Shown here: positions 2,962 to 49,633 of the stretch, piece after piece
Layout: each line of letters opens with the position of its first letter
How positions within the stretch are numbered: position 1 is the first letter of the stretch
Source: Acidobacteriota bacterium
GTDB taxonomy: Bacteria; Acidobacteriota; CAIWXX01
DNA length: 64,000 bases
Assembly: GCA_040755995.1 (NCBI GenBank)
Contig: JBFMAF010000013.1
Coordinates: forward strand, 757-64,756
Direction of reading: 5' to 3'
Notes under the pieces: model-generated
What the model was told of the DNA's origin: nothing
The model's input: the letters and a program-made list of their open reading frames with translations, nothing else
The model's database searches: none
Program-made: the position numbers and the translations under genes

Positions 2962-2996
2962 GGAAATGCGAAATCCGCAATTCGAAATCCGAAATC
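2962..2996. repeat. tandem heptanucleotide repeat (GGAAATG CGAAATC CGCAATT CGAAATC CGAAATC) between proS and pcm
   Basis: Direct reading shows five 7-bp units. The same CGAAATC heptamer recurs at 24683-24703. Confidence 0.7.
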
Positions 2997-3076
2997 CGAG
3001 GTCGAGCCCGCCTGGCCCGCGGGCGCTGCCGATCGCCCACCGGCGACATGTTCTCTCGACCCTTGTCCTGGCTCAC

Positions 3077-4519
3077 CTAGTAGGCCTTGGCGAATAGGAC
3101 GCGCCCCTTCGCCTCCTTGTTGCAGTAGACGCAGGCTCCCTTCTCTCCGTTCTCCTCGAAAGGGATCACGCGGATGGTCGCCGACGTCTTCTCCTTGATC
3201 TCCGTTTCGCACTCCCCGCTCCCGCACCAGAAGCAGGACAAGAACCCCGGGCGCTGCTCCATCATCTCCTGGAATCTTGCGAAATTGTCTACATCCGTAG
3301 TATTCATCCGCCGGAACTCGACGGCGCGCTCGAAGAGTGATGACTGCATCCGGGCGAGCAGGTCGCCGACGGCCCCCGGCAGTCCCTCCACCGGCACGAA
3401 CGCCTTCTCGCGAGTGTCGCGCCTGACAATCACCGCCTGGCGCTTCTCGATGTCCTTCGGCCCGATCTCGATCCTGAGCGGCACTCCGCGCATCTCCCAG
3501 TCCGCGAACTTCCAGCCGGGGGTATGCATGTCGCGATCGTCGAGCTTCGAGCGGATGCCGGACGCCTTGAGAGCCTCATGGATGCCGCGCGCATGCGGCA
3601 AGACCGTCTCTCTCCAGTTCCCTGCCGAAATCGGCACGATCACCGCCTGGATGGGGGCGATGCGTGGAGGCACGATCAGGCCGGAGTCGTCTCCGTGGGT
3701 CATGATTACGGCGCCTACCAGGCGCGTCGACACACCCCAGCTCGTCGACCAGGCGTACTGGAGCTGCTGGTTCTCGTCTTCGAATCGGATCTCGAACGCC
3801 TTGGCGAAGTGCTGGCCGAGGTTATGGGAAGTGCCGGACTGCAGCGCCCGTCCGTCGGTCATCAGGGCCTCGATCGCATAGGTGCGAAGCGCCCCCGCGA
3901 AGCGCTCTCTCGCAGTCTTCTCACCCTTGACCACCGGCACCGCGAGCTCCGTCTCGACGAACTCCCGGTACATCTCGAGAATCATCAGCGTCTCTTCCTG
4001 CGCCTCCTCCGGAGTCGCATGCACCGTGTGACCCTCCTGCCAGAGGAATTCCGTCGTCCGCAGGAACGGCCGGGTCACCTTCTCCCATCGCACGATGTTG
4101 GCCCACTGGTTGATGAGGATGGGAAGGTCTCGATATGACCGCACCCACTTGGCATACATCGGGCAGATGACCGCCTCGGAAGTGGGCCTTACGGCCAGCG
4201 GTTCCTCCAGCTCCTCGCCGCCGCCTCTCGTGACCCATGCCACCTCGGGCGCGAACCCCTTGACGTGGTCGGCCTCCTTCTTCAGCGAGCTCTCAGGCAC
4301 GAACAGCGGGAAGTACGCGTTCTCGTGACCGGTTTCCTTGATGCGCCGGTCGAGCAGGTCGCGCGCCCGCTCCCATATCGCATATCCATACGGTCGAATG
4401 ACCATGCAGCCCTTGACGGGCGTGTAGTCTGCAAGCTCCGCCTTGCGCACCACGTCCAGATACCACTTAGAGTAGTCCACGTTTCTGGGAGTGATCTCCG
4501 AAACCCAACGCTTCTCCAA
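3077..4519 (-). CDS. proS: proline--tRNA ligase, archaeal/eukaryotic-type class II
   Basis: 480 aa. MEKRWVSEITPRNVDYSKWYLDVVRKAELADY..., class II motifs and the C-terminal zinc-binding region are characteristic of the short ProRS form that lacks an editing insertion. Confidence 0.9.
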   Translation of the reverse strand: MEKRWVSEITPRNVDYSKWYLDVVRKAELADYTPVKGCMVIRPYGYAIWERARDLLDRRIKETGHENAYFPLFVPESSLKKEADHVKGFAPEVAWVTRGGGEELEEPLAVRPTSEAVICPMYAKWVRSYRDLPILINQWANIVRWEKVTRPFLRTTEFLWQEGHTVHATPEEAQEETLMILEMYREFVETELAVPVVKGEKTARERFAGALRTYAIEALMTDGRALQSGTSHNLGQHFAKAFEIRFEDENQQLQYAWSTSWGVSTRLVGAVIMTHGDDSGLIVPPRIAPIQAVIVPISAGNWRETVLPHARGIHEALKASGIRSKLDDRDMHTPGWKFADWEMRGVPLRIEIGPKDIEKRQAVIVRRDTREKAFVPVEGLPGAVGDLLARMQSSLFERAVEFRRMNTTDVDNFARFQEMMEQRPGFLSCFWCGSGECETEIKEKTSATIRVIPFEENGEKGACVYCNKEAKGRVLFAKAY

Positions 4520-4648
4520 TCAGGCCCTCCGTCCGGGCGGGACGACCCCGCCCCTACAACCTTGTCGATAATTTCAGTCTACAGCGTGAAGCCGACCCGG
4601 TCAAGGCGTAGGGGCGGGGGCGGGGGCGGGGTCACCCCGCCCGTGGGG

Positions 4649-5836
4649 TCACCCTACCCGCGGGCGCACGTGTTCGCGGAAGAGAGCGCGGAATTCACGG
4701 AAGGCGGCGGGCGCCTTGCGCCCCGCGATCTGCTGGACAAGCTCGATGAGAACCCAACCCAGGTAAACGAAGGCCATTTCCTCGCGCGAGCCCGGAAGGA
4801 CGAACTGGATGAACCACAAGACGAAGAGCCCCGCCGCCTCGTACCACTCGAACTTCATGTTCAGCAGGAGCATGAAGGCAAGCGCCGATTGTGCGATCGT
4901 CAAGCCGATCTCGACAACGTGCATGTGGTCGAACTGGATCGGGACTACGGCCCGGGAGCTCCAGCAGTAGACCATCGGTATCATAGCCACCAGCACCGTC
5001 CACTGGTTGATGTTTGACGACACCATGTTCATGAGTGCCATCGGAGCTTCCGTGACCTTGCGGGCCCAGTAGAAGGCCGAAAACTTCTCGGGGAACTCCG
5101 ACACGAACGGGGCGATCCATTGGATGAAGACGAACTGCGAGACGCCGGCGGCAAGGGCCAGCCCCTTGATCGACTCCACGAACGGCTCGGCTACCAAGTA
5201 GATGATCGCCCCGCCGGAGGCGAAGAACGCCACGATCATCGCGTTGCGCAGGCGAGGCCCGAGCGCCAGCACCTTGCGCGGAACATACTCGAGGTCTTCG
5301 ATTGCTTCTTGGTCACGGGACGGGATCCGGTTGAGGATTCCGAGGTAGACCACGTAGAGGACGGTCAATACCACCGAGTCGACTAGCGTAAGCGTGGCCT
5401 TGTAAAAGATCCAGATGAAGTACAGGAGCGGCGGCAGCAGCGCCATGACCTCCACAGAGTGCTCCCTGTCCAGCTCGATGATCCTCAACGGCTTCCCCGT
5501 CCTCCTGCGATAGAAGAACGCAGCGGTGGCGTAGATCATCGGCCATCCGAGGCCGATCAGCAGCCTCAGGGCTCCTGTGAAATTCGCCGTGAGGTTCGGG
5601 ACGTCCCGGTTCCACGCAATCACGGCTTCCACCGCGAACTCCGGCAGCGTCTGAAGCCACGCGAGTATCGCAAGAGCCATGCCCTGCGAGATCACGAACT
5701 GCGCGCACTCGGCCCCCCACGCTATGAGCATCGCGGCAGCGATCATCGTCGGGAACGTCCACAACGCGTGCACGGCGTGGGCGGCGGACCTGGCCAGGCC
5801 GTGTGTGACCGTCTTGGCAAGCAGAACGAGTCTCAC
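4649..5836 (-). CDS. polytopic membrane protein, putative cation/Ca2+ antiporter (CaCA-like)
   Basis: Ten or more hydrophobic segments. Two alpha-repeat-like motifs (QTLPEFAVEAV and APFVSEFPEKFSAF) resemble the GxSxPE repeats of Na+/Ca2+ exchanger family proteins. The assignment is tentative. Confidence 0.4.
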   Translation of the reverse strand: MRLVLLAKTVTHGLARSAAHAVHALWTFPTMIAAAMLIAWGAECAQFVISQGMALAILAWLQTLPEFAVEAVIAWNRDVPNLTANFTGALRLLIGLGWPMIYATAAFFYRRRTGKPLRIIELDREHSVEVMALLPPLLYFIWIFYKATLTLVDSVVLTVLYVVYLGILNRIPSRDQEAIEDLEYVPRKVLALGPRLRNAMIVAFFASGGAIIYLVAEPFVESIKGLALAAGVSQFVFIQWIAPFVSEFPEKFSAFYWARKVTEAPMALMNMVSSNINQWTVLVAMIPMVYCWSSRAVVPIQFDHMHVVEIGLTIAQSALAFMLLLNMKFEWYEAAGLFVLWFIQFVLPGSREEMAFVYLGWVLIELVQQIAGRKAPAAFREFRALFREHVRPRVG

Positions 5837-5943
5837 TAGAGCTGCTTCCCGTCTAGCGAGGCGGGGCCTGGAGGAAAATCAGGCCAGGCCGATTCACCAC
5901 TGCGCCTGTGGATGTCATCATGCGTGCCGTGAAGCGAGAAAGC

Positions 5944-7494: not shown

Positions 7495-7729
7495 CAGCCG
7501 GCCATTCTAGCACAGGTTGACAGTCATCAGTTGGCGGTCGTCGGTTTCGCTGCGAAACACTCGCAGGCGGGCGCAGGGATGGTCCGTTTCGGGCCGGCTG
7601 GTGTGGGCCCCCCTTCGGGCTCTGAACGTCGTCGCGGACTGGGTGGCGTGGCGGCGCGGCGGCGTGGATTCTGGCTCGTTTTGTTCTTGCGACTATGGTA
7701 GAATGATGCGAGAGAGGGAGGTTGGGAAC

Positions 7730-8323
7730 ATGAAACGCTATTTTGCAGCCGTCACCCTCGGAACGATCGTTGCGTTGCTGATCGGCACGGCTTCTTTCGC
7801 CCAGACCCTTGCAGATGTGGCACGCGAAACGAAAAAGGACGCGGAGAAGACCGCCAAGCCGTCGAAGACTTATACCAACGCGGACCTGGAGAGGTTCAGC
7901 GGCGGGGCGGTGAGCACGGTCGTCGATAGCGGTGAATACGATACAACGGCTGGTGGAGAATCGCCGGCGGCGGAGGCAGGCGAGTCAAAGCTGGCAGGCG
8001 ATGAGGGCCAACCGGGCGACACGCAGCAGGGCGGCAAGGGAGAGGACTACTGGCGCCAGAGGGCAGCGGAAGCGCGGAAGACCAAGGCGCGCGCCATCGA
8101 GCGTGCCGATCTGCTGCAGACGAAGGCGAATATCCTCTATTCAAACTGGGTAGCCGTGGACGACCCTGCCCAGCGCGACTACCTGTGGGTCCAGTACCTG
8201 CAGGTCCAGTCCGAAATAGAGGAAGCCAGGAAGGAAACTGCTGACACGTCGCAGGCTCTCACCGATCTTGAAGACGAGGCCCGCAAGGACGGGGCGCTCC
8301 CCGGGTGGCTCAGGGAAGAGTAG
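7730..8323 (+). CDS. secreted hypothetical protein, paralog A (pairs with 27951-28568)
   Basis: GGGAGG RBS, then ATG at 7730 and signal peptide MKRYFAAVTLGTIVALLIGTASFA. Shares the QTLADVARETKKDAEK...YWRQRAAE...GALPGWLREE architecture with the ORF at 27951. Its stop codon lies inside an AGAGTAGAGAGTGG repeat. Confidence 0.6.
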   Translation: MKRYFAAVTLGTIVALLIGTASFAQTLADVARETKKDAEKTAKPSKTYTNADLERFSGGAVSTVVDSGEYDTTAGGESPAAEAGESKLAGDEGQPGDTQQGGKGEDYWRQRAAEARKTKARAIERADLLQTKANILYSNWVAVDDPAQRDYLWVQYLQVQSEIEEARKETADTSQALTDLEDEARKDGALPGWLREE

Positions 8324-8380
8324 AGAGTGGCGCACCCGGCCAGTCGGCTTCGCCCGCTGGCCAGGCTTCGGAGTCGCCAG

Positions 8381-9115: not shown

Positions 9116-9119
9116 GGCG

Positions 9120-10960: not shown

Positions 10961-11071
10961 GACTTCCCCTAGTGAGCCGCGCCTCAAAGCCACCAGATCC
11001 CCGCGTGCGCGTATTGAGGCACCGCTCCCGAAACTCGACACAATCCCAGCATCTCTTCAGCTCCGGGCATC

Positions 11072-16290: not shown

Positions 16291-16312
16291 AGTAGAGGAC
16301 CTATAGATCTAG

Positions 16313-17457: not shown

Positions 17458-17640
17458 TGCCTTTGCATGGCAATGCCGCAGGGCGGCCACTGGGTCCGCC
17501 CCCACGTTGGGTTTTGCATTCTGCCTTTGGCAATGCCGCAGGGCGGCCACTGGGTCCGCCCCCACGTTGGGTTTTGCATTCTGCCTTTGGCAATGCCGCA
17601 GGGCGGCCACGGGGGGCCGCCCCTACGTTACATTTTGCCT
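17458..17640. repeat. three tandem approximately 60-bp direct repeats, each carrying an internal GGGCGG..CCGCCC palindrome; the third unit is degenerate
   Basis: Units 17458-17521 and 17522-17581 are identical except for a 3-bp insertion. The third copy merges into a TTGACC-N17-TAGGAT promoter-like sequence about 45 bp upstream of the response regulator start. Confidence 0.85.
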
Positions 17641-17686
17641 TTGACCTGAGGCGACCCGTCGATTAGGATAGCAAAGGGGGACCGGC

Positions 17687-18367: not shown

Positions 18368-18371
18368 CGCC

Positions 18372-18406
18372 AACCTTGAACCTTGAACCTTGAACCTTGA
18401 ACCGTC
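18372..18406. repeat. tandem heptamer (AACCTTG)4 plus one degenerate unit, located between the response regulator stop and the kinase start
   Basis: Direct reading. Each unit contains the overlapping codons TTG and TGA (TTGA). Confidence 0.85.
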
Positions 18407-19847: not shown

Positions 19848-19857
19848 GCCGTCGCCG

Positions 19858-19910
19858 CGCACTCTCCACTCTCTACTATTCTCCACCGGCTACGCGAGGC
19901 CGCGCCTCGC
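19858..19910. repeat. dispersed composite element copy (CTCTCCACTCTCTAC... + CGCGAGGCCGCGCCTCGC hairpin) between the convergent HK and mrcA genes
   Basis: Shares the GCGCACTCTC start and the hairpin with the copies at 1519 and 41309. Confidence 0.55.
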
Positions 19911-22210: not shown

Positions 22211-22267
22211 CGTGTCACCGCGCCTGTCTGCGACTGAGCAAATCCGGTTGCTCTCTCTTCCGGCAGC

Positions 22268-24520: not shown

Positions 24521-24682
24521 ATCTCAGCGAGGCGCGGCCTCAGACCGATGAACCATGGCAGGCTGCGTCGGCCGCACCTCGCGCAGTGAGTACAGAGTGG
24601 AGAGTGGCGGCGACGCACCGCTCCGAGAACTTGACTCAACCGCCACGTATTCCGCGCCTCAAGCCGGCTGTGCGGCAGTCCC

Positions 24683-24703
24683 CGAAATTCGAAATCCGAA
24701 ATC
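24683..24703. repeat. tandem heptamer (CGAAATT CGAAATC CGAAATC) immediately downstream of the rnj stop
   Basis: Direct reading. The heptamer is the same as at 2962-2996. Confidence 0.7.
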
Positions 24704-26365: not shown

Positions 26366-26399
26366 CGGCGGAATTATAGCACAGCCCCGCAGACCGGCC

Positions 26400-26552
26400 C
26401 CGAGCAGTTGGCAGTTGACAGTTGGCAGTTGTCAGCGTAAAGATCCTTGCATGTGCGCCGTGTTGATAGAAATAGGGCAGTTGGGCGGCTCGGCACCGCC
26501 AGAGACTCCGCAGACCCCGAACTGCCAACTGGCAACTGGCGGCCGACAACTT
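26400..26552. repeat. inverted arrays of CAGTTGG-family heptamers flanking the rnj/rarA divergent intergenic region
   Basis: 26400-26434 reads GAGCAGT TGGCAGT TGACAGT TGGCAGT TGTCAGC. 26518-26552 reads the reverse-complement units GAACTGC CAACTGG CAACTGG CGGCCGA CAACTTC, about 85 bp apart. Confidence 0.7.
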
Positions 26553-27889: not shown

Positions 27890-27950
27890 AGAGTAGAGAG
27901 TGGAGAGTGGGCCGCTTGACATTGAGGCATGTCGGTCCTACATTTGAATT

Positions 27951-28568: not shown

Positions 28569-28877
28569 GGAACCCCGACGCGGAGACGCGGCGACACGGA
28601 GACGCGGTGATAAGGCCCGGGTCGCCTCTCCCCCTCACTGCGTCCTCTCGTCCGTCGCACAAGGCACGGGCTTGAACCACCGGCGAGCGAAGGCGCACGT
28701 CGAGTCCATCCCACGCCTCGATCACAACCTGTCGCGGCCTGCCTCAATTGCTTCACCGAGATTTGACACCCGCAAAGGCCGGGTCTATATTGAACTGCGC
28801 GCGTCCATGAGGCGAAACGACATGTTGCGATTGAGACAAGTTCTTGGAGCGATGGGTAATCGCCACAGGGGAGTCGG

Positions 28878-28965
28878 CTGCTCTCTGCTCTCTGCTCTCC
28901 AATCTTCACGCGAGGCGCGGCCGAACCAGCCTCGCATGCTTCATCGGTCCGAGGCCGTGCCTCGG
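28878..28965. repeat. dispersed composite element, full-length copy, directly upstream of the pgsA ATG
   Basis: CTGCTCTCTGCTCTCTGCTCTCC...CGCGAGGCGCGGCCGAACCAGCCTCGC...GGTCCGAGGCCGTGCCTCGG aligns along its length with 1519-1606. Confidence 0.6.
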
Positions 28966-30077: not shown

Positions 30078-30227
30078 CGAGGCAGCGCTTCAGGCCCGCG
30101 ACGCGTCTCGCGGTTGAAGCGGCGTAGCCTCGTGTCGAGAGTGGGGAATGGAAGAGGCGGGGCCGCCCCTGAGGCGGCCGCGCCTTGCAGATCGGCGCGG
30201 CCAGGGCTGCCTTCGGGACGGCGAAGC

Positions 30228-34476: not shown

Positions 34477-35166
34477 ATGGAGGCTGAGATGAGATTCCCA
34501 CTGGCGATTGTCGTTGTTCTCGCAGCGGCCTGGCCGCTTTCCTGCATGGACCTGGACGCAGCCTTCTCTCTGGGCGTGACCGTCGGCTGGGCCGAGTTCT
34601 CGGCATTGCACTCGCCGTCTACGAATGCGGCCGCCGAAAGCCTCGGCATGGCGACGAGTTATGCCAAGGGCTGCGGATTGGACTCCGCCCCTCTCGACGA
34701 GATTCTCTCCAAGCTGGCGGGTGGAACAAAGCCGGACGCGGTATATAAGGATATCGGAGCAGCGCGGGATCTCTACCTTGCCACGACGGGCCAGTACAAG
34801 GCCGTGTGTGGAGAGGGGATGCGCAATCTGAGGAGTGTGATCTCGATGGGCTACCAGCTCGGCTTCGCCGAGGTCGCTTCAGCTGCGAATTGGAAGAATT
34901 CGAAATTCCTGATCCAGACGCTGTCGTGGGCGAAGGAAACCGCGGAAACGCTTCCCTGCGGTTTCGACACGGAGTCGCTCCAGTCCCTCATCGACCGTCT
35001 TACGGCGGGCGCTGCGGCTACCGAGATCGGAGCGGATCTGAAAACCGTGCGGCAGCAGTTTGCCGATGCGTGCAAGAGCGGCACAGTGACCGGCGGGCCC
35101 AAGCCGCCGGAACCGGTCGAGCCTCAGACGCAGCCGCAGACGCAGGAGGCAGCGGAAGTAGAGTAG
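34477..35166 (+). CDS. secreted hypothetical protein
   Basis: Signal peptide. No recognisable domain. The stop TAG lies inside a GTAGAGTAGAGAG repeat. Confidence 0.4.
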   Translation: MEAEMRFPLAIVVVLAAAWPLSCMDLDAAFSLGVTVGWAEFSALHSPSTNAAAESLGMATSYAKGCGLDSAPLDEILSKLAGGTKPDAVYKDIGAARDLYLATTGQYKAVCGEGMRNLRSVISMGYQLGFAEVASAANWKNSKFLIQTLSWAKETAETLPCGFDTESLQSLIDRLTAGAAATEIGADLKTVRQQFADACKSGTVTGGPKPPEPVEPQTQPQTQEAAEVE

Positions 35167-35202
35167 AGAGCAGAGCGCCAACTGCGCAAACCGCTGAGGG
35201 CC

Positions 35203-35316
35203 CTGGCCCGCGCTAAGGCCGCAGGTGCAGGGCGCCGAGGAGCGAGGAGCGCAGCGTACGCCCTGGTACGTGAGCACTGCAGCGACGAAGGCAACGCAGC
35301 AGATGCGGCCTTAGCG
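35203..35316. repeat. long-range inverted repeat (CCCGCGCTAAGGCCGCAG ... CTGCGGCCTTAGCGCGGG) between convergent genes
   Basis: 18-bp near-perfect arms separated by about 75 bp, read directly from the sequence. Confidence 0.6.
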
Positions 35317-35347: not shown

Positions 35348-35689
35348 CTACTCTTCGACGCTCTTATCCTCGTGCTCTTTGTACATGTACTTGATGTTGT
35401 GCTTGAGCACGAGCAGATTCGGTTCGCTCATCCTGTTGATCTTCAGGCAGGTCTTGTCGTACCACTCGATGACTCCGCGCAGGATCTCACCGTCGCTCAG
35501 GACCACCACCATCGGGGTCTTGCTGTTCATCTGCTTCAGGTAATAGAAGCTTTCGGCGTGCGTCTGCTCGGGCGGCATAGGCTTCTTGTGGACCGGGCGC
35601 ACGGAGAGCTGGTCCTTGTATTCCGACAGGCTGGGCCTGATGAGTTTCCTGTTGATGAAGTCATTCTTCGGCGGCAGCATCTTGGGCAT
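35348..35689 (-). CDS. divergent Hfq-like (Sm-fold) RNA-binding protein
   Basis: ESFYYLKQMNSKTPMVVVLSDGEILRGVIEWYDKTCLKI...NLLVLKHNIKYMY parallels the Hfq Sm1/Sm2 layout ([38 protein letters not shown]...VYKHAISTVVP), with a roughly 45-aa N-terminal extension. Confidence 0.5.
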   Translation of the reverse strand: MPKMLPPKNDFINRKLIRPSLSEYKDQLSVRPVHKKPMPPEQTHAESFYYLKQMNSKTPMVVVLSDGEILRGVIEWYDKTCLKINRMSEPNLLVLKHNIKYMYKEHEDKSVEE

Positions 35690-38610: not shown

Positions 38611-38877
38611 ATGGCTTACAAGACGCTGTACGTAGGCAACCTGTCCTACAGCGCAACCGAGCAGGACCTTAGGGACCTGTTCGCACAGTTCAACCCCGGT
38701 GAGATCCGGCTCATCGGCTCCAAGGGATTCGGCTTCGTGGATGTTCCATCTGAGAAGGTGGCCGAGGCCGTCTCCGCGACCAACATGAAGGAAGTCAGGG
38801 GCCGGGCGATTCGAGTCGACGAGGCGCGGCCTCGCCCCGAGAAGACCGGCGGCGGCCAGGGCCGTCACCGGGCCTAG
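38611..38877 (+). CDS. RRM-type RNA-binding protein
   Basis: RNP-2 LYVGNL and RNP-1 KGFGFVDV. 88 aa with a Gly/Arg-rich tail. Confidence 0.8.
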   Translation: MAYKTLYVGNLSYSATEQDLRDLFAQFNPGEIRLIGSKGFGFVDVPSEKVAEAVSATNMKEVRGRAIRVDEARPRPEKTGGGQGRHRA

Positions 38878-39399: not shown

Positions 39400-39402
39400 G
39401 CG

Positions 39403-39445
39403 GGAGACGAGAGACGAGAGACGAGAGACGGGAGAGGGGAGATGG
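39403..39445. repeat. purine-rich tandem heptamer (GAGACGA)x3-4 between the DsrE-like and DsrF-like genes
   Basis: GGGAGACGAGAGACGAGAGACGAGAGACGGGAGAGGGGAG read directly. It doubles as an extended Shine-Dalgarno-like tract. Confidence 0.75.
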
Positions 39446-39470
39446 TCCAGGCAGAGTGTGAGGGTCTATC

Positions 39471-39869
39471 TTGAAGGCTGTGGTGGTCGTTCTGCGGCTC
39501 GCTCCGTCTGAGACGCACCGATTCTCCGAGGCCGTCAGGCTTTGCGGCGGTCTGGCGGCCGGGGGGCTGGATGTCACGGTGATGTTCGAAGGCCCCGCCG
39601 TGCTCGCGCTGGACGAGCGGGCGCAGGAAGACCGAGGAAGTGAGATATCCGAGGCGCTCGGGCTGCTTGCCCAGGTCGGGCTTCGCATCTGCTACGACCC
39701 CGGCGAGGCGCGCACGTACGGAGTGCGCGTGGCTGGCTCGCCTGCCACGGACGCGCTCGATCGATCTCGGATGCGCGAGATTCTCGAACAGGCTCCGGGT
39801 CGCATCGTGTTTGACGCGCGCGACGAAGCCGGGCCAGGCACAGCAGCCGGCCCGGCGGCGTGGAGCTGA
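39471..39869 (+). CDS. DsrF/TusC-like sulfur-relay family protein
   Basis: MKAVVVVLRLAPSETHRFSEAVRLCGGLAAGGLDVTVMFEGPAV...RICYDPGEARTYGV parallels TusC/DsrF. TTG start. Confidence 0.4.
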   Translation: MKAVVVVLRLAPSETHRFSEAVRLCGGLAAGGLDVTVMFEGPAVLALDERAQEDRGSEISEALGLLAQVGLRICYDPGEARTYGVRVAGSPATDALDRSRMREILEQAPGRIVFDARDEAGPGTAAGPAAWS

Positions 39870-39953
39870 GATCGCCGGCAGTCGAGGCGCCGGCGGATGT
39901 GCGCCGGCGGCTCGACGTCGAAAGCGGCTGCGATATTCGGTCCCTGAGTCGAC

Positions 39954-41228: not shown

Positions 41229-41308
41229 CGAGACATCTCCTTTCTTCGCCCATCCCTGGACAACCGGACGGGTCTCAGGGAGTATACACTGAAAAGCACG
41301 CTGGAGGG

Positions 41309-41352
41309 AGACTCTCCACTCTCTCTCTACTCGAGGCGAGGCCGCGCCTCGC
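41309..41352. repeat. dispersed composite element copy directly after the sulfatase stop
   Basis: GAGACTCTCCACTCTCTCTCTACTCGAGGCGAGGCCGCGCCTCGCTA. Confidence 0.55.
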
Positions 41353-41354
41353 TA

Positions 41355-43538
41355 CTAGTCCTGCTCCGCGCCCAGGTAACCCAGTGCCCGGAGCTCCTCG
41401 ACAGTCTCCCTGTCGAGGGTCCTGTGGAGCTCTTCGCGCGAAACCTTCAGGCGTCGCTCCGCCTCGCGCTGGTGCTGCCTCAGGAGGCTCGCCATGTAGG
41501 CCGCTCGCACAGGCTGCTCGCTGACCAGGTTCTTTCTTTCTGCGGGGTCGCGGGCAAGATCATACAGGCGGCAGTCGTCGGCGGTCCCTCGCGCTGTCCG
41601 ATCGAACATGATGAGCTTGTAGCGGCCCATGACAACGGAATGAATCTCGGCGTGCAGCTCCGTTTCGCTAAAGATTGGATACAGGCGGTCGAGAGCCCGC
41701 GCGGGGCTCCCGAGTACATCCAACAGGCTGCGTCCCTGCATGTGTGCGGGCACATGGTCTACCAGGGCTGCGAGGGTAGGAAAGATGTCGATCGTCTGGA
41801 CGGGCTGCTTCACATGGTGGGATTCGAAGGGCGCCGCCGGTTTCACGACCAGTGAAAGCCGTGTGAGCTCGTTGTACAGGCTGTGGCCGTGATAGTAGCC
41901 GTTGTGGTCCCTGAACTCCTCGCCGTGGTCCGCGATGAAGACGACGACGGTGTCATCGTAGCGGCCACGTTCCTTCAGCCCGCGGATCAGCCGTCCGAAG
42001 TGGTGATCCATGAGGGCTATCTCCGAGTCATAGAGCGACCGCATGTAGTCCAGCTCGACCTCATTCGGGACGTAGATCCTCCGGCGGAGGTTGTACATGT
42101 TCATCAACTTCATGTTCACCGAAACGCCCTTCGGCTTGCGGGCGAGAGTGTTGAAGGGGGCCGGTGCGAGCAAGTAGGGATAGTGGGGCTCCATCACATG
42201 GACGTAGATGAAGAACGGAGCCTGCTCCGCCTGCTCCAGGGCCGTCTCGACGAGCTCCGCCACACCCGCGCGCGGCATGAACCTGAAATCGTCGAACCCC
42301 TGTTCGTAGCCTCCACGGACTCCTATGCCCGTATTGGCCACGCATGCGGCGGTCCGGTAGCCGTGTTGCTGGAGGAACTCGGCGAGGGTCCCGAAGTTCG
42401 GGTGCAGCCGGTCGTTGTGCGTGCGGATACCGTGGGCCGAAGGATACTCGCCCGTGAAGAGCGAGGCCACGGCTGGGCTGGTCCACGAGCACTGAGTCCA
42501 TGCGTTGTCGAAAACCACTGCCTCCGAGCCGAACTTCTCCAGCTCGGGCGATGTCGGATAGGGGTAGCCGTAGAGCGAGAGATGGTCGCGCCTGAGCGTG
42601 TCGACCAGGAAGATGAGGATGTTCGGAGTCGAGCGCTTCGGGGTTTCAGGGTGCTCTCGGTGCTGGGCCGCGCGACGGACGAGCGCCAGCCGATTCCACG
42701 AGAGCCGCGCGCCGGGGTGGTCCGATCCGAACTGGGCCGAGATCCTGCTGGGCCTGCCGGCGAGCGATGAGAGATCGATCCGCCCCTGGAACTCGCGACG
42801 GCCGATCGTCCTGGCGGATTCCTGCCAGACCGCGTGCTTTGGCACTCCATCGAGCTCCACGTACAGCGCCGCCGAGCACTCCGCCTTCTCAGGCGATTCG
42901 ATTGAACAGCGGAACTCGAGTGTGTCTTCCTCGGGGAGTACCAGCCATGACACCTCTGAGTCATCGAGATGTTCGATCATGGCGGACGGCTTGTTCACGC
43001 GACGAATCGCGTTCTCAGCCTTGCCGACCTTGATGAAATCCAGAACAGCCCTGGGCCCCCCGCCCTCGTCCCGGTGGCACGGGAACTTCAGCTCCGCGAT
43101 GTTCCTGCCGCTCTCCACCAACTGCTGTGGGACGCGGAGGAAGTAGTTGGACTTCGAGCTCCCGATAAAGACGTTACCGGCGAACCGGTCGTTGACGCGG
43201 AGGACCGCCTCACACGCGGGAGATGCATAGCCGTGGAACACAATATCCAGGGCAGCCGGCCGGCTCACCTCGAAAGCGAACACGGCCTGACTCCGGTTGG
43301 GCGGTATCGTGAGCTCGTTGCGATCGCTGAGATCGAACCCTTCGACGAGCAGCTGCCTGACGGACTCATCGCCGGGACGCAGCATCGTCGTCGGGCTTGT
43401 CGCGGCGGGTTCATGAAGCAGCAGGTCCCGTTCTACGGTGTCCGGCCTTGTCTTGCAGTTATCCAGGTACAGGGCCGCGAGGCAAAGAGCAGGCAGTCCG
43501 ATGCGTCGACACAAGATCGCAAGTCTCTTTGCCAACAA
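41355..43538 (-). CDS. sulfatase (alkaline-phosphatase superfamily) with an N-terminal extension of about 300 aa
   Basis: The sulfatase core starts at NILIFLVDTLRRDHLSLYGY. The ORF-track start at 43736 would overlap rpmB and its promoter. The first plausible start is TTG 43538, giving LAKRLAILCRRIGLPALCLAALYL. The exact start is uncertain. Confidence 0.65.
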   Translation of the reverse strand: MLAKRLAILCRRIGLPALCLAALYLDNCKTRPDTVERDLLLHEPAATSPTTMLRPGDESVRQLLVEGFDLSDRNELTIPPNRSQAVFAFEVSRPAALDIVFHGYASPACEAVLRVNDRFAGNVFIGSSKSNYFLRVPQQLVESGRNIAELKFPCHRDEGGGPRAVLDFIKVGKAENAIRRVNKPSAMIEHLDDSEVSWLVLPEEDTLEFRCSIESPEKAECSAALYVELDGVPKHAVWQESARTIGRREFQGRIDLSSLAGRPSRISAQFGSDHPGARLSWNRLALVRRAAQHREHPETPKRSTPNILIFLVDTLRRDHLSLYGYPYPTSPELEKFGSEAVVFDNAWTQCSWTSPAVASLFTGEYPSAHGIRTHNDRLHPNFGTLAEFLQQHGYRTAACVANTGIGVRGGYEQGFDDFRFMPRAGVAELVETALEQAEQAPFFIYVHVMEPHYPYLLAPAPFNTLARKPKGVSVNMKLMNMYNLRRRIYVPNEVELDYMRSLYDSEIALMDHHFGRLIRGLKERGRYDDTVVVFIADHGEEFRDHNGYYHGHSLYNELTRLSLVVKPAAPFESHHVKQPVQTIDIFPTLAALVDHVPAHMQGRSLLDVLGSPARALDRLYPIFSETELHAEIHSVVMGRYKLIMFDRTARGTADDCRLYDLARDPAERKNLVSEQPVRAAYMASLLRQHQREAERRLKVSREELHRTLDRETVEELRALGYLGAEQD

Positions 43539-43668
43539 CCCAGGCGGCGTATCTCGCTGCAAGTTCCCCTCGTGAGAAAGTAGGATACCGCAGCGATCCG
43601 CTGAACTCAAGGAGTTGCACAAACGCACTGTATTCTGTATACTGACGCGTTTGAGATAGGGAGGAATC

Positions 43669-43863
43669 ATGGCAGCGAGATGCGAGATATGTGGAAAGGG
43701 TCCGATATATGGGAGTCGCGTCAGCCACGCCCACAACGTGACGAGCCGGCGGTACGAGCCGAATCTTCACCGCGTCAGGGCCTATCTCAACGGCGGCTAC
43801 CGGCACATGCGCGTGTGCACGCGCTGCCTGCGCAGCGGACTCGTCCAGAAGACCAAGAGCTGA
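43669..43863 (+). CDS. rpmB: 50S ribosomal protein L28
   Basis: MAARCEICGKGPIYGSRVSHAHNVTSRRYEPNLHRVRAYLNGG... matches the L28 N-terminal signature (CxxCGK..xxGNxVSHxxxxTxRRxxPNLQ). A TTGCAC-N17-TATACT promoter and a GGGAGG RBS lie upstream. Confidence 0.8.
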   Translation: MAARCEICGKGPIYGSRVSHAHNVTSRRYEPNLHRVRAYLNGGYRHMRVCTRCLRSGLVQKTKS

Positions 43864-43906
43864 GTCGCCGTCTGAACCAGGGCCGGCGGACGGCGGCGAC
43901 TCCGCG

Positions 43907-45655
43907 ATGGCACCTGCAGGTCTGCAATCCGGCGACATCGTTCCTGTCGGGGGCTCGCAGACATCCCTGTCTCGACACCGGGCTTACATCTATCTCGCTC
44001 TGATTGTGATCGGCGCCGCCGTCTGGCGCCTCCCACTCCTGCTGCGTGCCGACCGGTTCTTCACCTCCGACGAGGCGATCGTGGGACTTATGGCACGGCA
44101 CGTCCTGGAAGGCGACCTGCCTGTCTTCTTCTGGGGTCAGAGGTACATGGGCACCATCGAGTCGTTTCTTGCGGCGGGAGTCTTCAGCATCGCCGGGGAC
44201 TCCGTGCTGGCGCTCAAGCTCGTCCCGCTCCTCGTGTTCCTCGCCTTCCTACTCGCTCACTACGACCTGGCTTCATTGCTGTGCGGCAGCGAAGCAGCGC
44301 TGCTGTCAGTCCTGCTCCTGGCTGTCGGCACACCCGTGCTGTACTCCTGGAGCGCCCGGGCGATGGCAGGCTACATGGAGACGCTCCTGCTCGGCACACT
44401 CCTCCTGTCAACCATCGTCCGCTACGAGCGGGCGCCGTCACGAAGGTTGCTGTTTGCCGCCGGTGTGGTGGGAGGACTAGGGTGGTGGACAAGCCAGCTC
44501 GTGGCCTGCTTCGTGCTGGCGGGAGCCGTCTGGCTCGTTCGTGGCAGGATCCGGCGGGTCCGAATCCCGAGCTGGACCGAGGTGCGATCCTGGATCACGC
44601 TCAGCCCGATTGTCTCGTCTCTTCCCGTGGCTCTGCGTGCACTCCTGGTGAGCATGAACGTTCTTGCCGCGGTCTACCTGGGCCTCGGGGCGCTGGTCCT
44701 GCTGACTGGTGGCGGAGAGCTGAAATGGGGCCCACTGTACGCCAAGGCTACGGACGGTTGGAAGCTCGCAGGCTACGCGGGCTGTTGGGTGATAGTCGAG
44801 ACGGTGTTTCTGGCTATGCTGGTGCGTCGCGAGACGGCTCTGGCCGCTCTCCGCAGATACGGCCCGGTCGCCGTGGGATTCGTGATGGGCTACGCACCGG
44901 CGCTCTACGGGTGGCTCAAACTCGGCAGCAGCAGCGCTCAGTTGCAGAAGTTCTCTCTCCCGGAGCTGCTTGCGCGCCTGCCGGTGTTCTTCAGCGACAT
45001 CATACCGCTCGTGGCCGGAGGAAGCCTGCCGGACGGGCTGGGTCCCTCGTGGATGACCACGGCGGTGCTGCTGGGCCTGCTTCTCCCGGTAATCGCCGCC
45101 ACGGTCCGCGACAAGGCGGCGGCATTGCCCGCCCTGACTGCCGCCTCCACCATCGCCCTGCTTCTCTTCAGCGGCAACTTCAGCGATCTCAATTCGTACC
45201 GATACCTGCTCCCGATCTGCGCACCGATGTCCATCCTGTACGCCCGCGGAATCGGGAGATTCAAACCGGCGGCACTGAGGGTGGGCCTGGTTTCAGCACT
45301 GCTACTCATCTGGGGGTTGCAGGACCACCGCTACGTTGGAACGCTCGATCCCGATTTTGACACCGGGCGCATCGTTCAATGGCTGCGCTCCCGCAGCGTC
45401 GAATCCGGGTACGCGGACTACTGGATCGCATACCGCCTTGATTTCATTTCGAAGGAGGACCCGCTGCTGGCTCCGTACAAGTCGCAGGACCGGTACCCTC
45501 GGTACACCGAGAAGGCACGATCAGCGGGGGTTGCGGCCTATGTCTTCCATGTGGGCGATCCCATCTGGCCGAGATTCACTCGGGCAAAGCGACTGCTCAT
45601 CCGGGAGCAGGCCCTGATCGGCCGGCACCGCGTGTACCTGGTCTCACAAAGGTGA
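43907..45655 (+). CDS. ArnT/PMT-like glycosyltransferase (GT39/GT83 family) polytopic membrane protein
   Basis: The first loop DEAIVGLMARHVLEGDLPVFFWGQRYMG resembles the DE-containing catalytic loop of ArnT/PMT_2 proteins. About 12 TM segments. Confidence 0.6.
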   Translation: MAPAGLQSGDIVPVGGSQTSLSRHRAYIYLALIVIGAAVWRLPLLLRADRFFTSDEAIVGLMARHVLEGDLPVFFWGQRYMGTIESFLAAGVFSIAGDSVLALKLVPLLVFLAFLLAHYDLASLLCGSEAALLSVLLLAVGTPVLYSWSARAMAGYMETLLLGTLLLSTIVRYERAPSRRLLFAAGVVGGLGWWTSQLVACFVLAGAVWLVRGRIRRVRIPSWTEVRSWITLSPIVSSLPVALRALLVSMNVLAAVYLGLGALVLLTGGGELKWGPLYAKATDGWKLAGYAGCWVIVETVFLAMLVRRETALAALRRYGPVAVGFVMGYAPALYGWLKLGSSSAQLQKFSLPELLARLPVFFSDIIPLVAGGSLPDGLGPSWMTTAVLLGLLLPVIAATVRDKAAALPALTAASTIALLLFSGNFSDLNSYRYLLPICAPMSILYARGIGRFKPAALRVGLVSALLLIWGLQDHRYVGTLDPDFDTGRIVQWLRSRSVESGYADYWIAYRLDFISKEDPLLAPYKSQDRYPRYTEKARSAGVAAYVFHVGDPIWPRFTRAKRLLIREQALIGRHRVYLVSQR

Positions 45656-45712
45656 GTTGAGGAAACGGGGCGGCCTGCCCGGCCGCCCCTTGCGTTTGAC
45701 TCGGAGCCGGTT

Positions 45713-47269: not shown

Positions 47270-47404
47270 CTTGCCAAACCTCCATTCATCGCCTGGGCTG
47301 CGACACAGGGCCGATGCTCTCCCACCGCTGCCCAGGTCCACCCTCGCTTCTTCATCATCCAATTCTAGCCATTCCACCGTTGAATACGCAATGCCAGCCG
47401 GACG

Positions 47405-47480
47405 AGTTGCAGCAAGACGCGGAGAACCGGGGGAACGGAGAATAGGAGAACCGGGGAGTCGGGGAAACGGAGAAACGGAG
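47405..47480. repeat. irregular GGAGAAC/CGGGGAA-type short tandem repeat tract
   Basis: GGAGAACCGGGGGAACGGAGAATAGGAGAACCGGGGAGTCGGGGAAACGGAGAAACGGAGAGGGGGAGAC lies between the htrA-like and transglutaminase genes. Confidence 0.6.
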
Positions 47481-47507
47481 AGGGGGAGACGCGGAGATGC
47501 GCGCGGG

Positions 47508-49571
47508 CTAGTCCAGGACCTGCTGGCTCAACGTGCGCAATCGCGCCTCGAACAACCGCGGATCGGCATCGCCGTAACGAGCGGCGTAGTATAGCTCGGC
47601 AAGCTCCCGGCAGGCTGCGCGTCGCCCGTCCCCGGGAAACCGCCGGGCGAATTCGAGCGGCGTCTCGGCTTCGAGCTTGTGGTACCCACGCCGCTCGGCT
47701 TCTCGAAGGAATCGGACGTACGCTCGGGCCACTCTCCCGATCCTGCGAGACTCGACCGGCGCCACCCCCTCCAGCCTGAGCGGCTTGCGTGAGCTGAGCG
47801 TGAAGAACAGCAGGGCCGCGGCGCAGATCGCGGCGACGGCCACGGCGGCGGCCCGCCGCGGGATCGTGGGGGCCTGCAGGTAGGACCGGCTCCTGTCGAG
47901 AGTCTCCTGCAAAGCGCCCCTCATGCGCTGCACCGCCTGGCTCACCTCCATGATCACATAGAACTGGTCCCAGAGATTGTAGGTGAGCACGTAGCGGTCC
48001 CAGTAGAGCTTGTACGAATCCCAGTAGTTGCGAATCATGCCGATGAGCGAGAACGGGCTCTCGGCAACGGTCTCGACGGCGCCAGGCGTCGGATCGAACC
48101 GGATCCAGCCGCTGCCCGGGAAGTGCGCCTCGACCCAGGCGTGCGCGTCCAACTGGCGGACGACGTAGAAGTTGCCGGTTGAATTGAACTCGCCCCCGAG
48201 GAATCCCGATACCACCACGGCAGGGATGCCGACGGAGCGGCAGAGGAGCGCCATGGAGGTGGCGAAGTACTCGCAGTGGCCCAGCTTCTGGTTGAACAGG
48301 AAATCGTCGACCACGCTCAGCGACTCGTCGCGCGCGGGGAGATCGAGCGTGTAGGCGTAGTTGGACCGGAGGTACTCCTCGATTTTTCTACAAGCGTCGT
48401 AGTTCGTGGCGGCGCCCTGGGTGATCTGCTGGGCGAACGGAGCGAGACGCTCCTCGCCGGGCGGCATCTTCAACTGCTCGATGTCCGCGCGCGGCCCTGG
48501 GGCGTCCGGCACCGATGCCGGCCGCTCGGGTAGCTCGGCCGATTCGACGTACGACATCCTGTAGTAGCGCTGGTAGCGGGAGTATATCGTGCTCCCGTCT
48601 GTCTCGAGCCAGAAGAAGCGGCCCCGGAGCGTCAGCGGACGCCCGGCTACGAACACCACCTCGGAATCCATCGGCTCGACGACGAACTCGAACTCCACCC
48701 TCGGTCCGTCGTGGCGCGGTCGCTGGATCGGGTGCGTGTCTTCGCCTATCCTGGTGACCATCGACCGCCGCTGCGCCCGCTGCCACTGCCTGCCGTCGTA
48801 GGACGAGTAGGTGATCCCCGTCCAGTAGATGGGCCTGTCGAGCGGGCCATCGCCGTCGAGCCGTTTCACGCGCATGACGACGGACGGATCTTTCTTTATA
48901 GAGCCGATCCGGTCCAGCATCACGCGGTCTGAGAAGCCCGAGACGATCTGCGATTCCGCCCGCAGGCGCTGGAAATACCCCATGCTGAGCCGCGGTATCA
49001 GGAAGAAGATGAGGATTGCCAGCGCGGCGGAGCCCGCCGTCATGACCGCACTGAGACGCAGCACCGGTGGAGCCTCGGCGGTTTCGCCGCCATCTTTCAA
49101 TGACGCCATCGCCATTAGCAGCACCAGACCGATGACGACAAAGGCGAGCAGGCCCGGAAGCAAAGTGGCCTCGGTGGTCAGCACGGAGGCCGCGAGGAGC
49201 TGGAAGAACGAGATCGCGATCAACTGGTACCGGTCGCGGTCGGCATGGCGGTCGAAGAGCTTGGCGAGCTGCAGGAAGTACAGCAGCCTCGCTATGGGCC
49301 CGATGATCTCGTGGCTCGCCGCGAAGTCCAGGAAGAGAACAGGGAGGTAGAGCAGCGAGAGCCCGTTCCAAACCCGGCGAAGAAGAACCTGGCGGCGCAC
49401 CAGGTAGCCGCGATCCAGGGCCACGACGAAGAGCGGTACATACAGCGCCGCTTGGAAGAGGAACTTGGCAGGGTCCGACGTGAATAGAGTCACGGCGGAG
49501 GCGAGGGCGAGTGCCAGCAGCGCCGGATCGACGATGAGATCGCTTCGACGGAGCAGGTGCGGCAGGGCCAT
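47508..49571 (-). CDS. transglutaminase-like domain membrane protein (TgpA-like; DUF3488 + TGase core)
   Basis: N-terminal TM bundle. Core C-H-D: GHCEYFATSMALLCRSVGIPA...DAHAWVEAHFPGSGWIRFDPT. ATG at 49571 (MALPHLL), or at 49613 inside the heptamer repeat. Confidence 0.75.
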   Translation of the reverse strand: MALPHLLRRSDLIVDPALLALALASAVTLFTSDPAKFLFQAALYVPLFVVALDRGYLVRRQVLLRRVWNGLSLLYLPVLFLDFAASHEIIGPIARLLYFLQLAKLFDRHADRDRYQLIAISFFQLLAASVLTTEATLLPGLLAFVVIGLVLLMAMASLKDGGETAEAPPVLRLSAVMTAGSAALAILIFFLIPRLSMGYFQRLRAESQIVSGFSDRVMLDRIGSIKKDPSVVMRVKRLDGDGPLDRPIYWTGITYSSYDGRQWQRAQRRSMVTRIGEDTHPIQRPRHDGPRVEFEFVVEPMDSEVVFVAGRPLTLRGRFFWLETDGSTIYSRYQRYYRMSYVESAELPERPASVPDAPGPRADIEQLKMPPGEERLAPFAQQITQGAATNYDACRKIEEYLRSNYAYTLDLPARDESLSVVDDFLFNQKLGHCEYFATSMALLCRSVGIPAVVVSGFLGGEFNSTGNFYVVRQLDAHAWVEAHFPGSGWIRFDPTPGAVETVAESPFSLIGMIRNYWDSYKLYWDRYVLTYNLWDQFYVIMEVSQAVQRMRGALQETLDRSRSYLQAPTIPRRAAAVAVAAICAAALLFFTLSSRKPLRLEGVAPVESRRIGRVARAYVRFLREAERRGYHKLEAETPLEFARRFPGDGRRAACRELAELYYAARYGDADPRLFEARLRTLSQQVLD

Positions 49572-49598
49572 GACGCTCAACCTCTGCCGGCCCGGCAG

Positions 49599-49633
49599 CG
49601 GATTCCGCATTCCGCATTCCGCATTCCGCAATC
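49599..49633. repeat. tandem heptamer (CGGATTC CGCATTC CGCATTC CGCATTC CGCAATC) at the DUF58-TgpA junction
   Basis: Direct reading. On the coding (minus) strand the unit GAATGCG contains an ATG in every unit. Confidence 0.8.

Follow-up and report, generated by a model that had tools for sequence, protein, structure and literature searches.

A 64,000-nucleotide stretch of a metagenome-assembled genome (MAG) of an Acidobacteriota bacterium (contig JBFMAF010000013.1; hereafter the window) carries tandem arrays of 7-nt units that are specific to period 7 and confined to non-coding DNA, where they are concentrated at junctions between co-oriented genes or just after stop codons, as a first-pass annotation of this DNA had proposed. 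We consider it probable that these arrays are intergenic heptanucleotide simple-sequence repeats (SSRs) of the 'long SSR' kind, akin to the short tandemly repeated repetitive (STRR) sequences of cyanobacteria, that are born by slippage and tolerated only outside open reading frames (ORFs), accompanied by a lineage-specific family that resembles repetitive extragenic palindromic (REP) elements.

Tandem Repeats Finder (TRF), run on the window, catalogued 11 period-7 arrays together with two octamer arrays (at 22191 and 28576) and an irregular tract of period 8/16/24 at 47420-47501 (Table 1). Every array of the first-pass list was recovered within a few bases of its position, although the 'GGAGAAC tract' that had been taken for a heptamer array is in fact the irregular tract, and the second arm of the CAGTTGG inverted pair, while present, is shorter than claimed (26520-26540). 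To compare periods, we scored array strength with a single scheme for periods 4-15, calling arrays with a score of at least 12 strong and using 20 dinucleotide-preserving shuffles as the control. Five strong arrays were found at period 7, one each at periods 6 and 15, four at period 14, which are the heptamer arrays again at double period, and none at any other period, while the shuffles yielded no strong array at any period. Likewise, perfect arrays of at least three copies numbered four at period 7 and one at period 6, with none at any other period between 4 and 12. The arrays are perfect in their cores and degenerate towards their ends, their units are diverse (AACCTTG, GAGACGA, CGAAATC/CGCATTC, CAGTTGG and GAGAGTN), and their strand relative to transcription is mixed. 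Head-to-tail 7-nt copies beyond chance in the window, and the predominance of period 7 over neighbouring periods both here and in the other loci described below, place the arrays in the heptanucleotide class of long SSRs.

To position the arrays relative to genes, we refined start codons using Pfam domain boundaries, Shine-Dalgarno (SD) motifs and the N-terminal consensus of homologues. This procedure assigned starts to pcm (ATG 2878, with AGGAG upstream), tgpA (ATG 49571, AGAGG), the DsrF-like gene (TTG 39471, GAGGG), pgsA (ATG 28970, the protein beginning MNLPNLLTI), ftsK (ATG 24517) and rarA (ATG 26555), and left three candidates for the histidine kinase (TTG 18390, 18408 or 18426). On the refined map, intergenic DNA makes up 8.9% of the window and holds the midpoints of all 11 heptamer arrays (P about 3e-12); this figure depends on the start assignments, because five arrays lie inside the longest possible 5' extension of an ORF, and the assignments rest on independent evidence. 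Arrays occupy 10 of 32 co-oriented spacers, the figure being one of nine for divergent and again one of nine for convergent spacers. Almost all co-oriented spacers longer than about 40 bp hold an array or else one of the hairpin-family elements described below, so that in practice repeats account for most of the length of long intercistronic spacers. A promoter scan placed no promoter-like site inside the array-bearing intra-operon junctions, suggesting that the arrays there are probably part of polycistronic mRNA, and the promoter-like sites at 27916 and 28763 adjoin arrays without lying within them. Convergent and divergent junctions have arrays too, as do 5' leaders, and some arrays are antisense to genes.

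The host had been described as a high-GC genome of non-cyanobacterial appearance, and both points hold: GC content is 59-64% along the window (about 62-63% overall), and three window proteins are identical to MEW6364248, MEW6364261 and MEW6364280, which belong to a 133-kb contig of the Acidobacteriota MAG. The closest relatives of its RNase J, at 67-68% identity, are likewise Acidobacteriota, and searches with RNase J in one-genome-per-species GTDB contigs, JGI metagenomes and 5.8 billion proteins found no strain-level relative. Pfam upholds the gene names given earlier (proS, pcm, response regulator/kinase, rnj, rarA/MgsA, DsrE-like, DUF58 and TgpA), with matches for ProRS, PCMT, response regulator, histidine kinase, FtsK, MgsA/RarA, CDP-alcohol phosphatidyltransferase, AMMECR1, HtrA-like protease, TgpA, DUF58 and MoxR, and a weak match for DsrE.

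We compared the window with loci and contigs of relatives, labelled L001-L164 and P0129. The gene orders rnj-ftsK-PBP1 and MoxR-DUF58-TgpA are kept in the nearest relatives, and the junctions within them differ. The rnj/ftsK spacer measures 198 bp and contains two repeat elements in the window, whereas L161, with 18 bp, and L162, with 64 bp, have no array there, and the DUF58/TgpA spacer of 112 bp corresponds to a 4-bp overlap in L164 and to 46-51 bp in L163 and the contig of P0129. The relatives have arrays of their own: L001 carries (AGGGACT)4 13 nt past the rnj stop, L161 has (GCATTYN)6 in its ftsK/PBP spacer, L164 contains an inverted (AGTTCAA)4/(GGAACTT)5.9 pair at another place, and in L163 (12105-12181) inverted GA-rich and CT-rich octamer arrays directly follow the tgpA stop, the position of the window's 47420 tract, with a downstream gene that differs from that of the window. 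As judged from these comparisons, the heptamer 'texture' is common to the lineage, and individual arrays come and go.

A broader survey, in which TRF was run on 162 rnj-centred loci (2.39 Mb, mostly Acidobacteriota) and arrays of at least three copies were counted, gave 47 arrays of period 7 versus eight of period 9, seven of period 8 and two of period 6. The density of period-7 arrays is about 20 per Mb in the survey versus 94 per Mb in the window. Of these 47, 44 lie outside ORF interiors (in intergenic DNA, in a possible 5' extension of an ORF or at its last bases), which, with the 11 of 11 in the window, gives the non-coding location of long SSRs. Inverted pairs were found in L033, L101, L123 and L083, and between L033 and L101 an orthologous array has gained or lost exactly one 7-nt unit, a difference with the signature expected of slippage. 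Two further ideas from the survey were dropped: any excess of arrays near rnj in other Acidobacteriota is weak (seven of 154 upstream and four of 156 downstream flanks, versus 0.017 per 200 bp of other intergenic DNA), and a common CAGT/ACTG core resembling TAACTGA amounts to about six to seven of the 47 units, some of them orthologous.

Over-representation of heptameric SSRs has been reported for many bacteria, with polymerase slippage proposed as their source (Mrazek et al. 2007, as reported in PMC4679880 and PMC4692102). Based on the observations above, we propose that the arrays arise and change length by strand slippage, under a general bacterial bias towards 7-nt units, and that they would survive only outside reading frames, since a 7-nt indel within a gene shifts the frame. 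In addition, a few unit families have spread to many sites in this lineage. In the largest, a REP-like module, GAGAGT heptamers follow a GC-rich hairpin, which is either CGAGGC-NNN-GCCTCG or its 55-nt variant; the module is found at stop codons or just past them and also exists as an 84-nt dispersed element. The net effect would mainly be longer intercistronic spacers with mostly unstructured RNA, and regulatory consequences for mRNA processing, termination or promoter context would be local and secondary, with no single designed function shared by all arrays.

The family structure is most evident for GAGAGT, which occurs at about ten loci in 64 kb versus two expected, while the other units occupy one or two loci each. 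A whole-window repeat search followed by alignment identified three copies of an 84-nt dispersed element, at 1521-1604, 28881-28964 (80% identity) and, inverted, 24528-24604 (77%), in each of which heptamers of the CTCTC type adjoin a GC-rich hairpin module. At 19855-19909 and 41311-41351 there are short forms, placed immediately past a stop codon or no more than 3 nt from it, in which GTAGAGAGTGGAGAGT follows a 7-bp hairpin GCGAGGC-NNN-GCCTCGC, and the element 3' of AMMECR1 (30078-30149) has a 55-nt hairpin whose base and tail are those of the short forms. Three genes, namely 7517-8323, rarA and 34477-35166, take their TAG stop codon from the GAGAGT tract. The tract motif ACTCTCYACTCTC gives 17 matches at nine loci of the window versus 2.96 expected and none in 160 other loci, and the mini-hairpin CGAGGCNNNGCCTCG gives eight versus 1.05 expected and none in 162 other loci, so that the module has the extragenic palindrome typical of REP elements and bacterial interspersed mosaic elements (BIMEs). 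The stem is predicted in all folded copies of the mini-hairpin except the first full copy (1551-1604), which has a stem mismatch. Relative to their flanking genes, two of the three full copies of the 84-nt element lie antisense.

Other units form smaller families. The two CGAAATC arrays are 95% identical over 22 nt (24682 array versus 2975-2996) and related to the CGCATTC array at 49602 (family D5), all three having the same strand relative to transcription, while the AACCTTG, GAGACGA and CGCATTC units are singletons within the window. The unlinked octamer arrays of the GACACGGN and GACGCGGN types make up a second dispersed repeat family, of period 8, with three loci versus 0.15 expected; the arrays at 22191-22222 and 28579-28610 are 91% complementary to each other, and therefore have the same orientation relative to transcription, each downstream of a stop codon. 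A mini-ORF of 12-13 amino acids in the 84-nt element (MKDTRPLWPRLA, MKHARLVRPRLA, MNHGRLRRPHLAQ) was considered and rejected as a gene, two of its three copies being antisense to operons, and its conservation is probably a by-product of the hairpin. A scan of viral contigs with GTAGAGAGTGGAGAGT returned 22 scattered matches, which we took to be uninformative.

The GAGAGT-plus-hairpin subset could instead consist of copies of a mobile element, of the REP/BIME type or like a miniature inverted-repeat transposable element (MITE), that were spread by a transposase or by recombination and whose heptamer tail belongs to the element and did not arise by local slippage. We regard this explanation, which concerns the subset only, as possible but not the likelier one. 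Three 84-nt copies with 77-80% identity on both strands, short forms with the same hairpin base and the same tail, and the restriction of the family to its lineage, with no match in the 2.39 Mb of other loci, are what such copies would look like, and REP elements typically prefer gene 3' ends, as this family does. However, terminal inverted repeats and target-site duplications were not seen, and no gene for a REP-associated tyrosine transposase (RAYT) or similar IS200/IS605-type protein was present among the 30 window ORFs scanned against Pfam. Moreover, three hairpin-less GAGAGT tracts (8316, 27875 and 35159) supply a gene's own stop codon, which fits local growth better than insertion.

Several observations weigh against an origin by tolerated slippage alone, as they look more ordered than pure neutral slippage predicts. 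To our knowledge, the preference for 7 nt is unexplained in the literature. Among the 11 arrays of co-oriented spacers, six start no more than 12 nt past the upstream stop codon (P = 0.025, with arrays placed at random inside their own spacers as the null), and GAGAGT shares the strand of the upstream gene in seven of nine loci. One and the same junction can hold different units in different species: GATTTCG follows rnj in the window and AGGGACT in L001, and the spacer upstream of a dapD-like gene holds AATCAAC, ACTTCTG, CAATCGN or AATCGTA, depending on the species. This dapD-like spacer, whose upstream gene ends in ...ECKC* and which has a -10-like TATACT before the dapD-like gene, contains heptamer arrays in 21 of 57 acidobacterial loci (for example L033 7497-7580, L101 7325-7425, L045/L051/L126, L118/L125, L077, L071 and L145), with clade-dependent units (AGAAGTN/ACTTCTN, TTGATTG/CAATCAA, CGATTGN/CAATCGN and AATCGTA). 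Eight strict inverted pairs from two unit families were found there, in which the arms are complementary while the units differ between clades, and (AATCARC)3.7 is kept in three MAGs despite diverged sequence further upstream. The complementary arms may reflect either a selected hairpin or the homogenisation of the arms by template switching. Species lacking an array at this spacer have ordinary hairpins instead.

Next, we asked what the arrays would do as RNA. The GAGAGT, AACCTTG and GAGACGA arrays are predicted to be wholly unstructured (minimum free energy 0), and most arrays fold no better than shuffled versions of themselves, the exceptions being the inverted-pair region between rnj and rarA (-60.7 kcal/mol versus -51.5 +/- 4.1 for shuffles, z = -2.3) and one 84-nt copy (28878-28964, z = -3.3). 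A terminator scanner, applied to the sites of arrays and hairpins, flagged a single weak intrinsic terminator, at 41318-41302, and the hairpins are followed by GAGAGU and not by the U-tract of a Rho-independent terminator. Rfam gave nothing at gathering thresholds and, at E <= 0.5, only a weak irrelevant match at 45603-45698, with none at the arrays; no tRNA or tmRNA gene was found in the window. Two observations on neighbouring transcription signals may be added. The 82-nt tract at 47420-47501, read on the minus strand, would give a transcript with C41, G12, U26 and A3 that resembles a Rho entry (rut) site, and it precedes the promoter-like TTGCGT-18-TAGAAT of the HtrA-like gene, which was recognised by eye and is unlisted in the promoter scan. 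The extended -10 element of rnj reads TGTGCTATAAT in the window (26375-26385, minus strand) and in L161 (about 112-122), and TGTGATATAAT in L162 (about 4784-4794); it is just about 9-10 nt from the ATG, which suggests a leaderless or near-leaderless RNase J mRNA in the lineage.

A more functional view is that the arrays are cis-elements that act at the RNA or DNA level through their repeat architecture, not their sequence, with copy number setting the strength. They could offer single-strand-binding proteins (cold-shock, S1-domain or Hfq-like) an unstructured landing site past the stop codon or in the 5' leader, act as rut-like Rho entry sites or, in inverted pairs, form the arms of long hairpins that function as terminators or RNase III targets. 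The post-stop position bias, the orientation bias of the GAGAGT family, the re-use of the same junctions with different units across species, and the dapD-like site, with its complementary arms and with ordinary hairpins in array-less species, keep such a view alive, and the unstructured RNA of three unit families, the C-rich, G-poor tract after tgpA and the precedents of the Haemophilus influenzae hmw1A (ATCTTTC)n array, whose 5'-untranslated-region hairpin is cut by RNase III (PMC12721329), and of Nostoc, in which heptamer repeats affect recF and recO expression (bioRxiv 10.1101/2022.06.06.494920), are all consistent with it. We nevertheless hold it to be rather unlikely. The nearest relatives keep the operons and lack arrays at the same junctions, two of three full 84-nt elements are antisense, no canonical terminator tail follows any array, and Rfam offers no match. 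Furthermore, the absence of a shared unit sequence means that a single sequence-specific binder cannot explain the arrays, the arms of the window's sole inverted pair are probably not co-transcribed because they are 84 nt apart around a promoter region, and concerted evolution of inverted arms can also be obtained by template switching without selection. The window does encode an Hfq-related protein (113 aa, 35348-35689) and a small RNA-binding protein with an RRM domain (88 aa, 38611-38877); either could bind single-stranded repeat RNA, and nothing ties either to the arrays.

A bolder form of this idea, which we consider unlikely, is that the heptamer arrays of Acidobacteriota are maintained, sequence-agnostic structural modules of intergenic DNA. 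The comparison of loci could be read in this way, since junctions such as those after rnj, after tgpA and upstream of the dapD-like gene keep an array while its unit turns over, and inverted arms stay complementary. If so, the arrays would be evolvable hairpin arms or unstructured spacers in termination, mRNA processing and the balance between cistrons, tuned by copy number.

A role in translational coupling, which the first-pass annotation had regarded as plausible, is not supported. According to this proposal, junction arrays offer start codons in all three frames and promote reinitiation on the downstream cistron. Units do embed start codons (TTG in AACCTTG, ATG in GCGGAAT), the longest kinase ORF begins at TTG 18390 inside the AACCTTG array, and the deposited TgpA (700 aa) begins at ATG 49610 inside the GCGGAAT array, so that annotated starts do fall inside arrays. 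In addition, a 10-codon mini-ORF (39442-39474, MVQAECEGLS) starts with an ATG at the last base of the GAGACGA array, and its TGA overlaps the TTG of the DsrF-like gene (TTGA). However, starts in every frame follow from the arithmetic of a 7-nt period (7 mod 3 = 1), most units have no start codon (GATTTCG, GAGACGA, GAGAGTN, ACTCTCT), and stop codons are placed in all three frames as well, TGA by (AACCTTG)n and TAG by (GAGAGTA)n, and the in-frame TGA 18384 closes every TTG of the AACCTTG array but the last. The downstream genes have an SD motif and start of their own beyond the array (pcm, tgpA, the DsrF-like gene and, for the start, pgsA at ATG 28970), relatives couple the same genes by 4-bp overlaps or 18-bp spacers without an array, and arrays are not restricted to co-oriented junctions, being present also at convergent or divergent ones, in 5' leaders and in antisense orientation. 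Compared with the relatives' spacers, arrays lengthen junctions rather than couple genes, and we consider coupling highly improbable. As ATG 49571 agrees better than ATG 49610 with the N-termini of six TgpA homologues, the deposited start may be a miscall induced by the repeat. Equally improbable are contingency loci, at which frequent changes in copy number would make an SSR phase-variable and so switch particular genes or grade their expression: heptamer SSRs have such precedents in H. influenzae hmw1A/hmw2A and in the TTTTGAT repeats of the Vibrio cholerae ctxAB promoter, a functional single-locus case, and the array at 27875-27910 abuts a -35 box while that at 28878 lies in a 5' leader, but the window's arrays are short (3-5 copies), none lies within an ORF or between -35 and -10 boxes, the flanking genes are housekeeping ones (proS, pcm, rnj, ftsK, rarA, pgsA, DsrE-like, MoxR-DUF58-TgpA) and not surface or restriction-modification genes, and the host is an environmental acidobacterium.

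We then compared the arrays with known heptamer repeats. The units of cyanobacterial STRRs are CCCCAGT, TTGGTCA and CAACAGT, none of which occurs as a tandem doublet in the window, where each has zero to three single copies; the published units TAACTGA, GGGAATC, GGGGATT and GGGACCG are not tandem there either. The proposed resemblance to STRRs thus holds for the form, tandem heptamers in non-coding DNA, and fails for the unit sequences and the host, which is an acidobacterium and not a heterocystous cyanobacterium. In common with the STRRs of Calothrix, Nostoc and Anabaena and the Nostoc GGGGA(C/T)T and TTTTGAA repeats, the arrays are few-copy 7-nt units at non-coding or intra-operon sites, with several families per genome and no settled function (PMC4692102, bioRxiv 10.1101/2022.06.06.494920), the copy number here coming from 64 kb only. 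The Xanthomonas GGGAATC repeats (Rehm et al. 2015, PMC4692102) are 89-93% intergenic, lie on average 28 nt from the upstream ORF and mostly between co-oriented ORFs, include about 70 in inverted pairs, and retain their sites with variable length between species. The window and its relatives share this pattern of about 90% intergenic location, co-oriented junctions, proximity to the upstream ORF end, inverted pairs and, judging by L033 and L101, conserved sites of variable length, but Xanthomonas has one dominant G-rich, quadruplex-forming unit, whereas the window has at least six unrelated units, none of them G-quadruplex-capable. The TAACTGA direct repeats of marine Beggiatoaceae, also present in cyanobacteria and Bacteroidetes (MacGregor 2015, PMC4679880), and the elements of four heptanucleotides in Geobacter metallireducens (PMC2700814) are likewise genome-specific intergenic heptamer families, for which a regulatory role has been proposed. 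They are often located just upstream of start codons, with one family per genome in up to hundreds of sets, whereas the arrays described here lie mostly beside stop codons, and TAACTGA is absent from the window.

The hairpin-plus-GAGAGT module is comparable to REP/BIME elements as a short GC-rich palindrome that is extragenic, multi-copy, lineage-specific and located at gene 3' ends or inside operons; it differs in its tandem heptamer tail and in having no sequence similarity to described REPs, its copy number again being that of 64 kb. The best-studied functional case of a heptamer array, hmw1A/hmw2A, shares with the window an array in transcribed non-coding RNA that is able to form one arm of a long hairpin (PMC12721329), but there it has at least ten copies, is phase-variable, sits at one virulence locus and has a G-rich, non-repeat arm as its pairing partner, whereas the arrays of the window have three to five copies at many housekeeping junctions. 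A literature search found no report of heptamer repeats in Acidobacteria. The present finding is descriptive as it stands and fits existing knowledge: it extends the long-noted, unexplained bacterial heptanucleotide repeats to Acidobacteriota, where in one lineage arrays occupy about a third of co-oriented spacers and form dispersed families, including one whose heptamers are joined to a REP-like hairpin, and it draws attention to repeats that may mislead gene callers on start codons, as in the case of TgpA. Should the arrays be selected and not tolerated, the sites in Acidobacteriota would lend themselves well to comparative study, since the unit changes there while position and arm complementarity persist, and this could help to account for the action of such repeats.

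Table 1. Repeat arrays and related elements of the window. Positions are those of the window; superscript-free unit numbers give copies.
Feature	Position	Strand	Context	Basis
(GAGAGTN)4.3, + strand ACTCTCT	1520-1549	-	Spacer between T2SSG-like gene and DUF192 gene; tail of 84-nt dispersed element	TRF; repeat families D3/I1/I21; alignment
GC-rich hairpin module CGAGGC...GCCTCG of 84-nt element	1551-1604	-	3 nt past TAA stop of T2SSG-like gene	
(GGATTTC)5.3, + strand CGAAATC (TRF unit GAAATCC)	2963-2999	-	proS/pcm spacer, 198 bp; 77 nt past proS stop, 84 nt ahead of pcm start (ATG 2878)	
GAGAGT doublet	8316-8328	+	Its TAG is the stop of gene 7517-8323	
(AACCTTG)4.6, 100% matches	18372-18403	+	Fills response regulator/histidine kinase junction, 4 nt past regulator stop; candidate kinase starts TTG 18390, 18408, 18426	
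Short hairpin+GAGAGT module	19855-19909	-	PBP1-like stop (19910) abuts GCGAGGC-GCG-GCCTCGC, then GAGAGT tract	
Octamer array, GACACGGN type	22191-22222	-	47 nt past ftsK stop	TRF; inverted pair I2
Third full 84-nt hairpin+GAGAGT element	24528-24607	+	Antisense to flanking genes; ends 10 nt upstream of ftsK start (ATG 24517)	Inverted pair I1
(GATTTCG)3.1 (TRF unit CCGAAAT)	24682-24703	-	12 nt past rnj stop codon	
(GCAGTTG)4.6	26404-26435	+	Left arm of inverted pair, divergent rnj/rarA region; ends 18 nt upstream of rnj extended -10 TGTGCTATAAT (- strand, 26385-26375)	
(AACTGSC)3 (TRF unit AACTGGC)	26520-26540	+	Right arm of inverted pair, 14 nt upstream of rarA ATG 26555	
(GAGAGTR)4.9 (TRF unit GAGAGTA, 27875-27908)	27875-27910	+	Overlaps rarA stop TAG 27887-27889; ends 5 nt before promoter-like TTGACA-17-TACATT, which begins at 27916	
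Octamer array, GACGCGGN type	28576-28610	+	7 nt past stop of orf27954-28568	
Second full 84-nt element (CTGCTCT heptamers + hairpin)	28878-28964	+	Antisense to genes; in pgsA 5' leader, between promoter-like site 28763 and ATG 28970	Family D3
CTGCTCT array, 3.1 copies	28878-28899			TRF
55-nt hairpin CGAGGC...GCCTCG, then GAGAGTGGGG	30078-30149	+	Directly 3' of AMMECR1 stop codon	
GAGTAGAGAGC doublet	35159-35171	+	Overlaps stop of gene 34477-35166	
Minor (CGAGGAG)2.3 array	35236-35251	+	3' of doublet 35159-35171	TRF
(GAGACGA)4 (TRF 4.6 copies, 39404-39435/42) with degenerate GAGACGG/GAGAGGG end units	39404-39442	+	4 nt past DsrE-like stop; 28 nt short of DsrF-like start (TTG 39471)	
Short hairpin+GAGAGT module	41311-41351	-	3 nt past stop of gene 41355-43736	
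Irregular period-8/16/24 tract, CGGAGAAN on + strand	47420-47501	-	6 nt past tgpA stop	
(GCGGAAT)4.7, + strand ATTCCGC	49602-49634	-	DUF58/TgpA spacer, 112 bp	
Mini-ORFs, 12-13 codons: MKDTRPLWPRLA, MKHARLVRPRLA, MNHGRLRRPHLAQ	1551-1604, 24528-24582, 28911-28964	Hairpin-to-GAGAGT strand		

Two longer-period repeats were also found in the window. The stretch 17468-17647 consists of 2.7 copies of a 60-bp unit, of which copies one and two are identical and copy three has 67% identity; the repeat ends in a promoter-like TTGACC-17-TAGGAT (17641-17669) just upstream of the response-regulator gene (17687), and its units may be sites to which the regulator binds to control its own two-component operon. 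At 4611-4664, (GGGGCG)3.5 runs into a 17-nt unit present 2.3 times (GCGGGGTCACCCCACCC); these repeats lie in the 129 bp that separate gene 4649-5836 from the proS gene downstream of it, and adjoin a promoter-like site at 4604-4576 on the minus strand.

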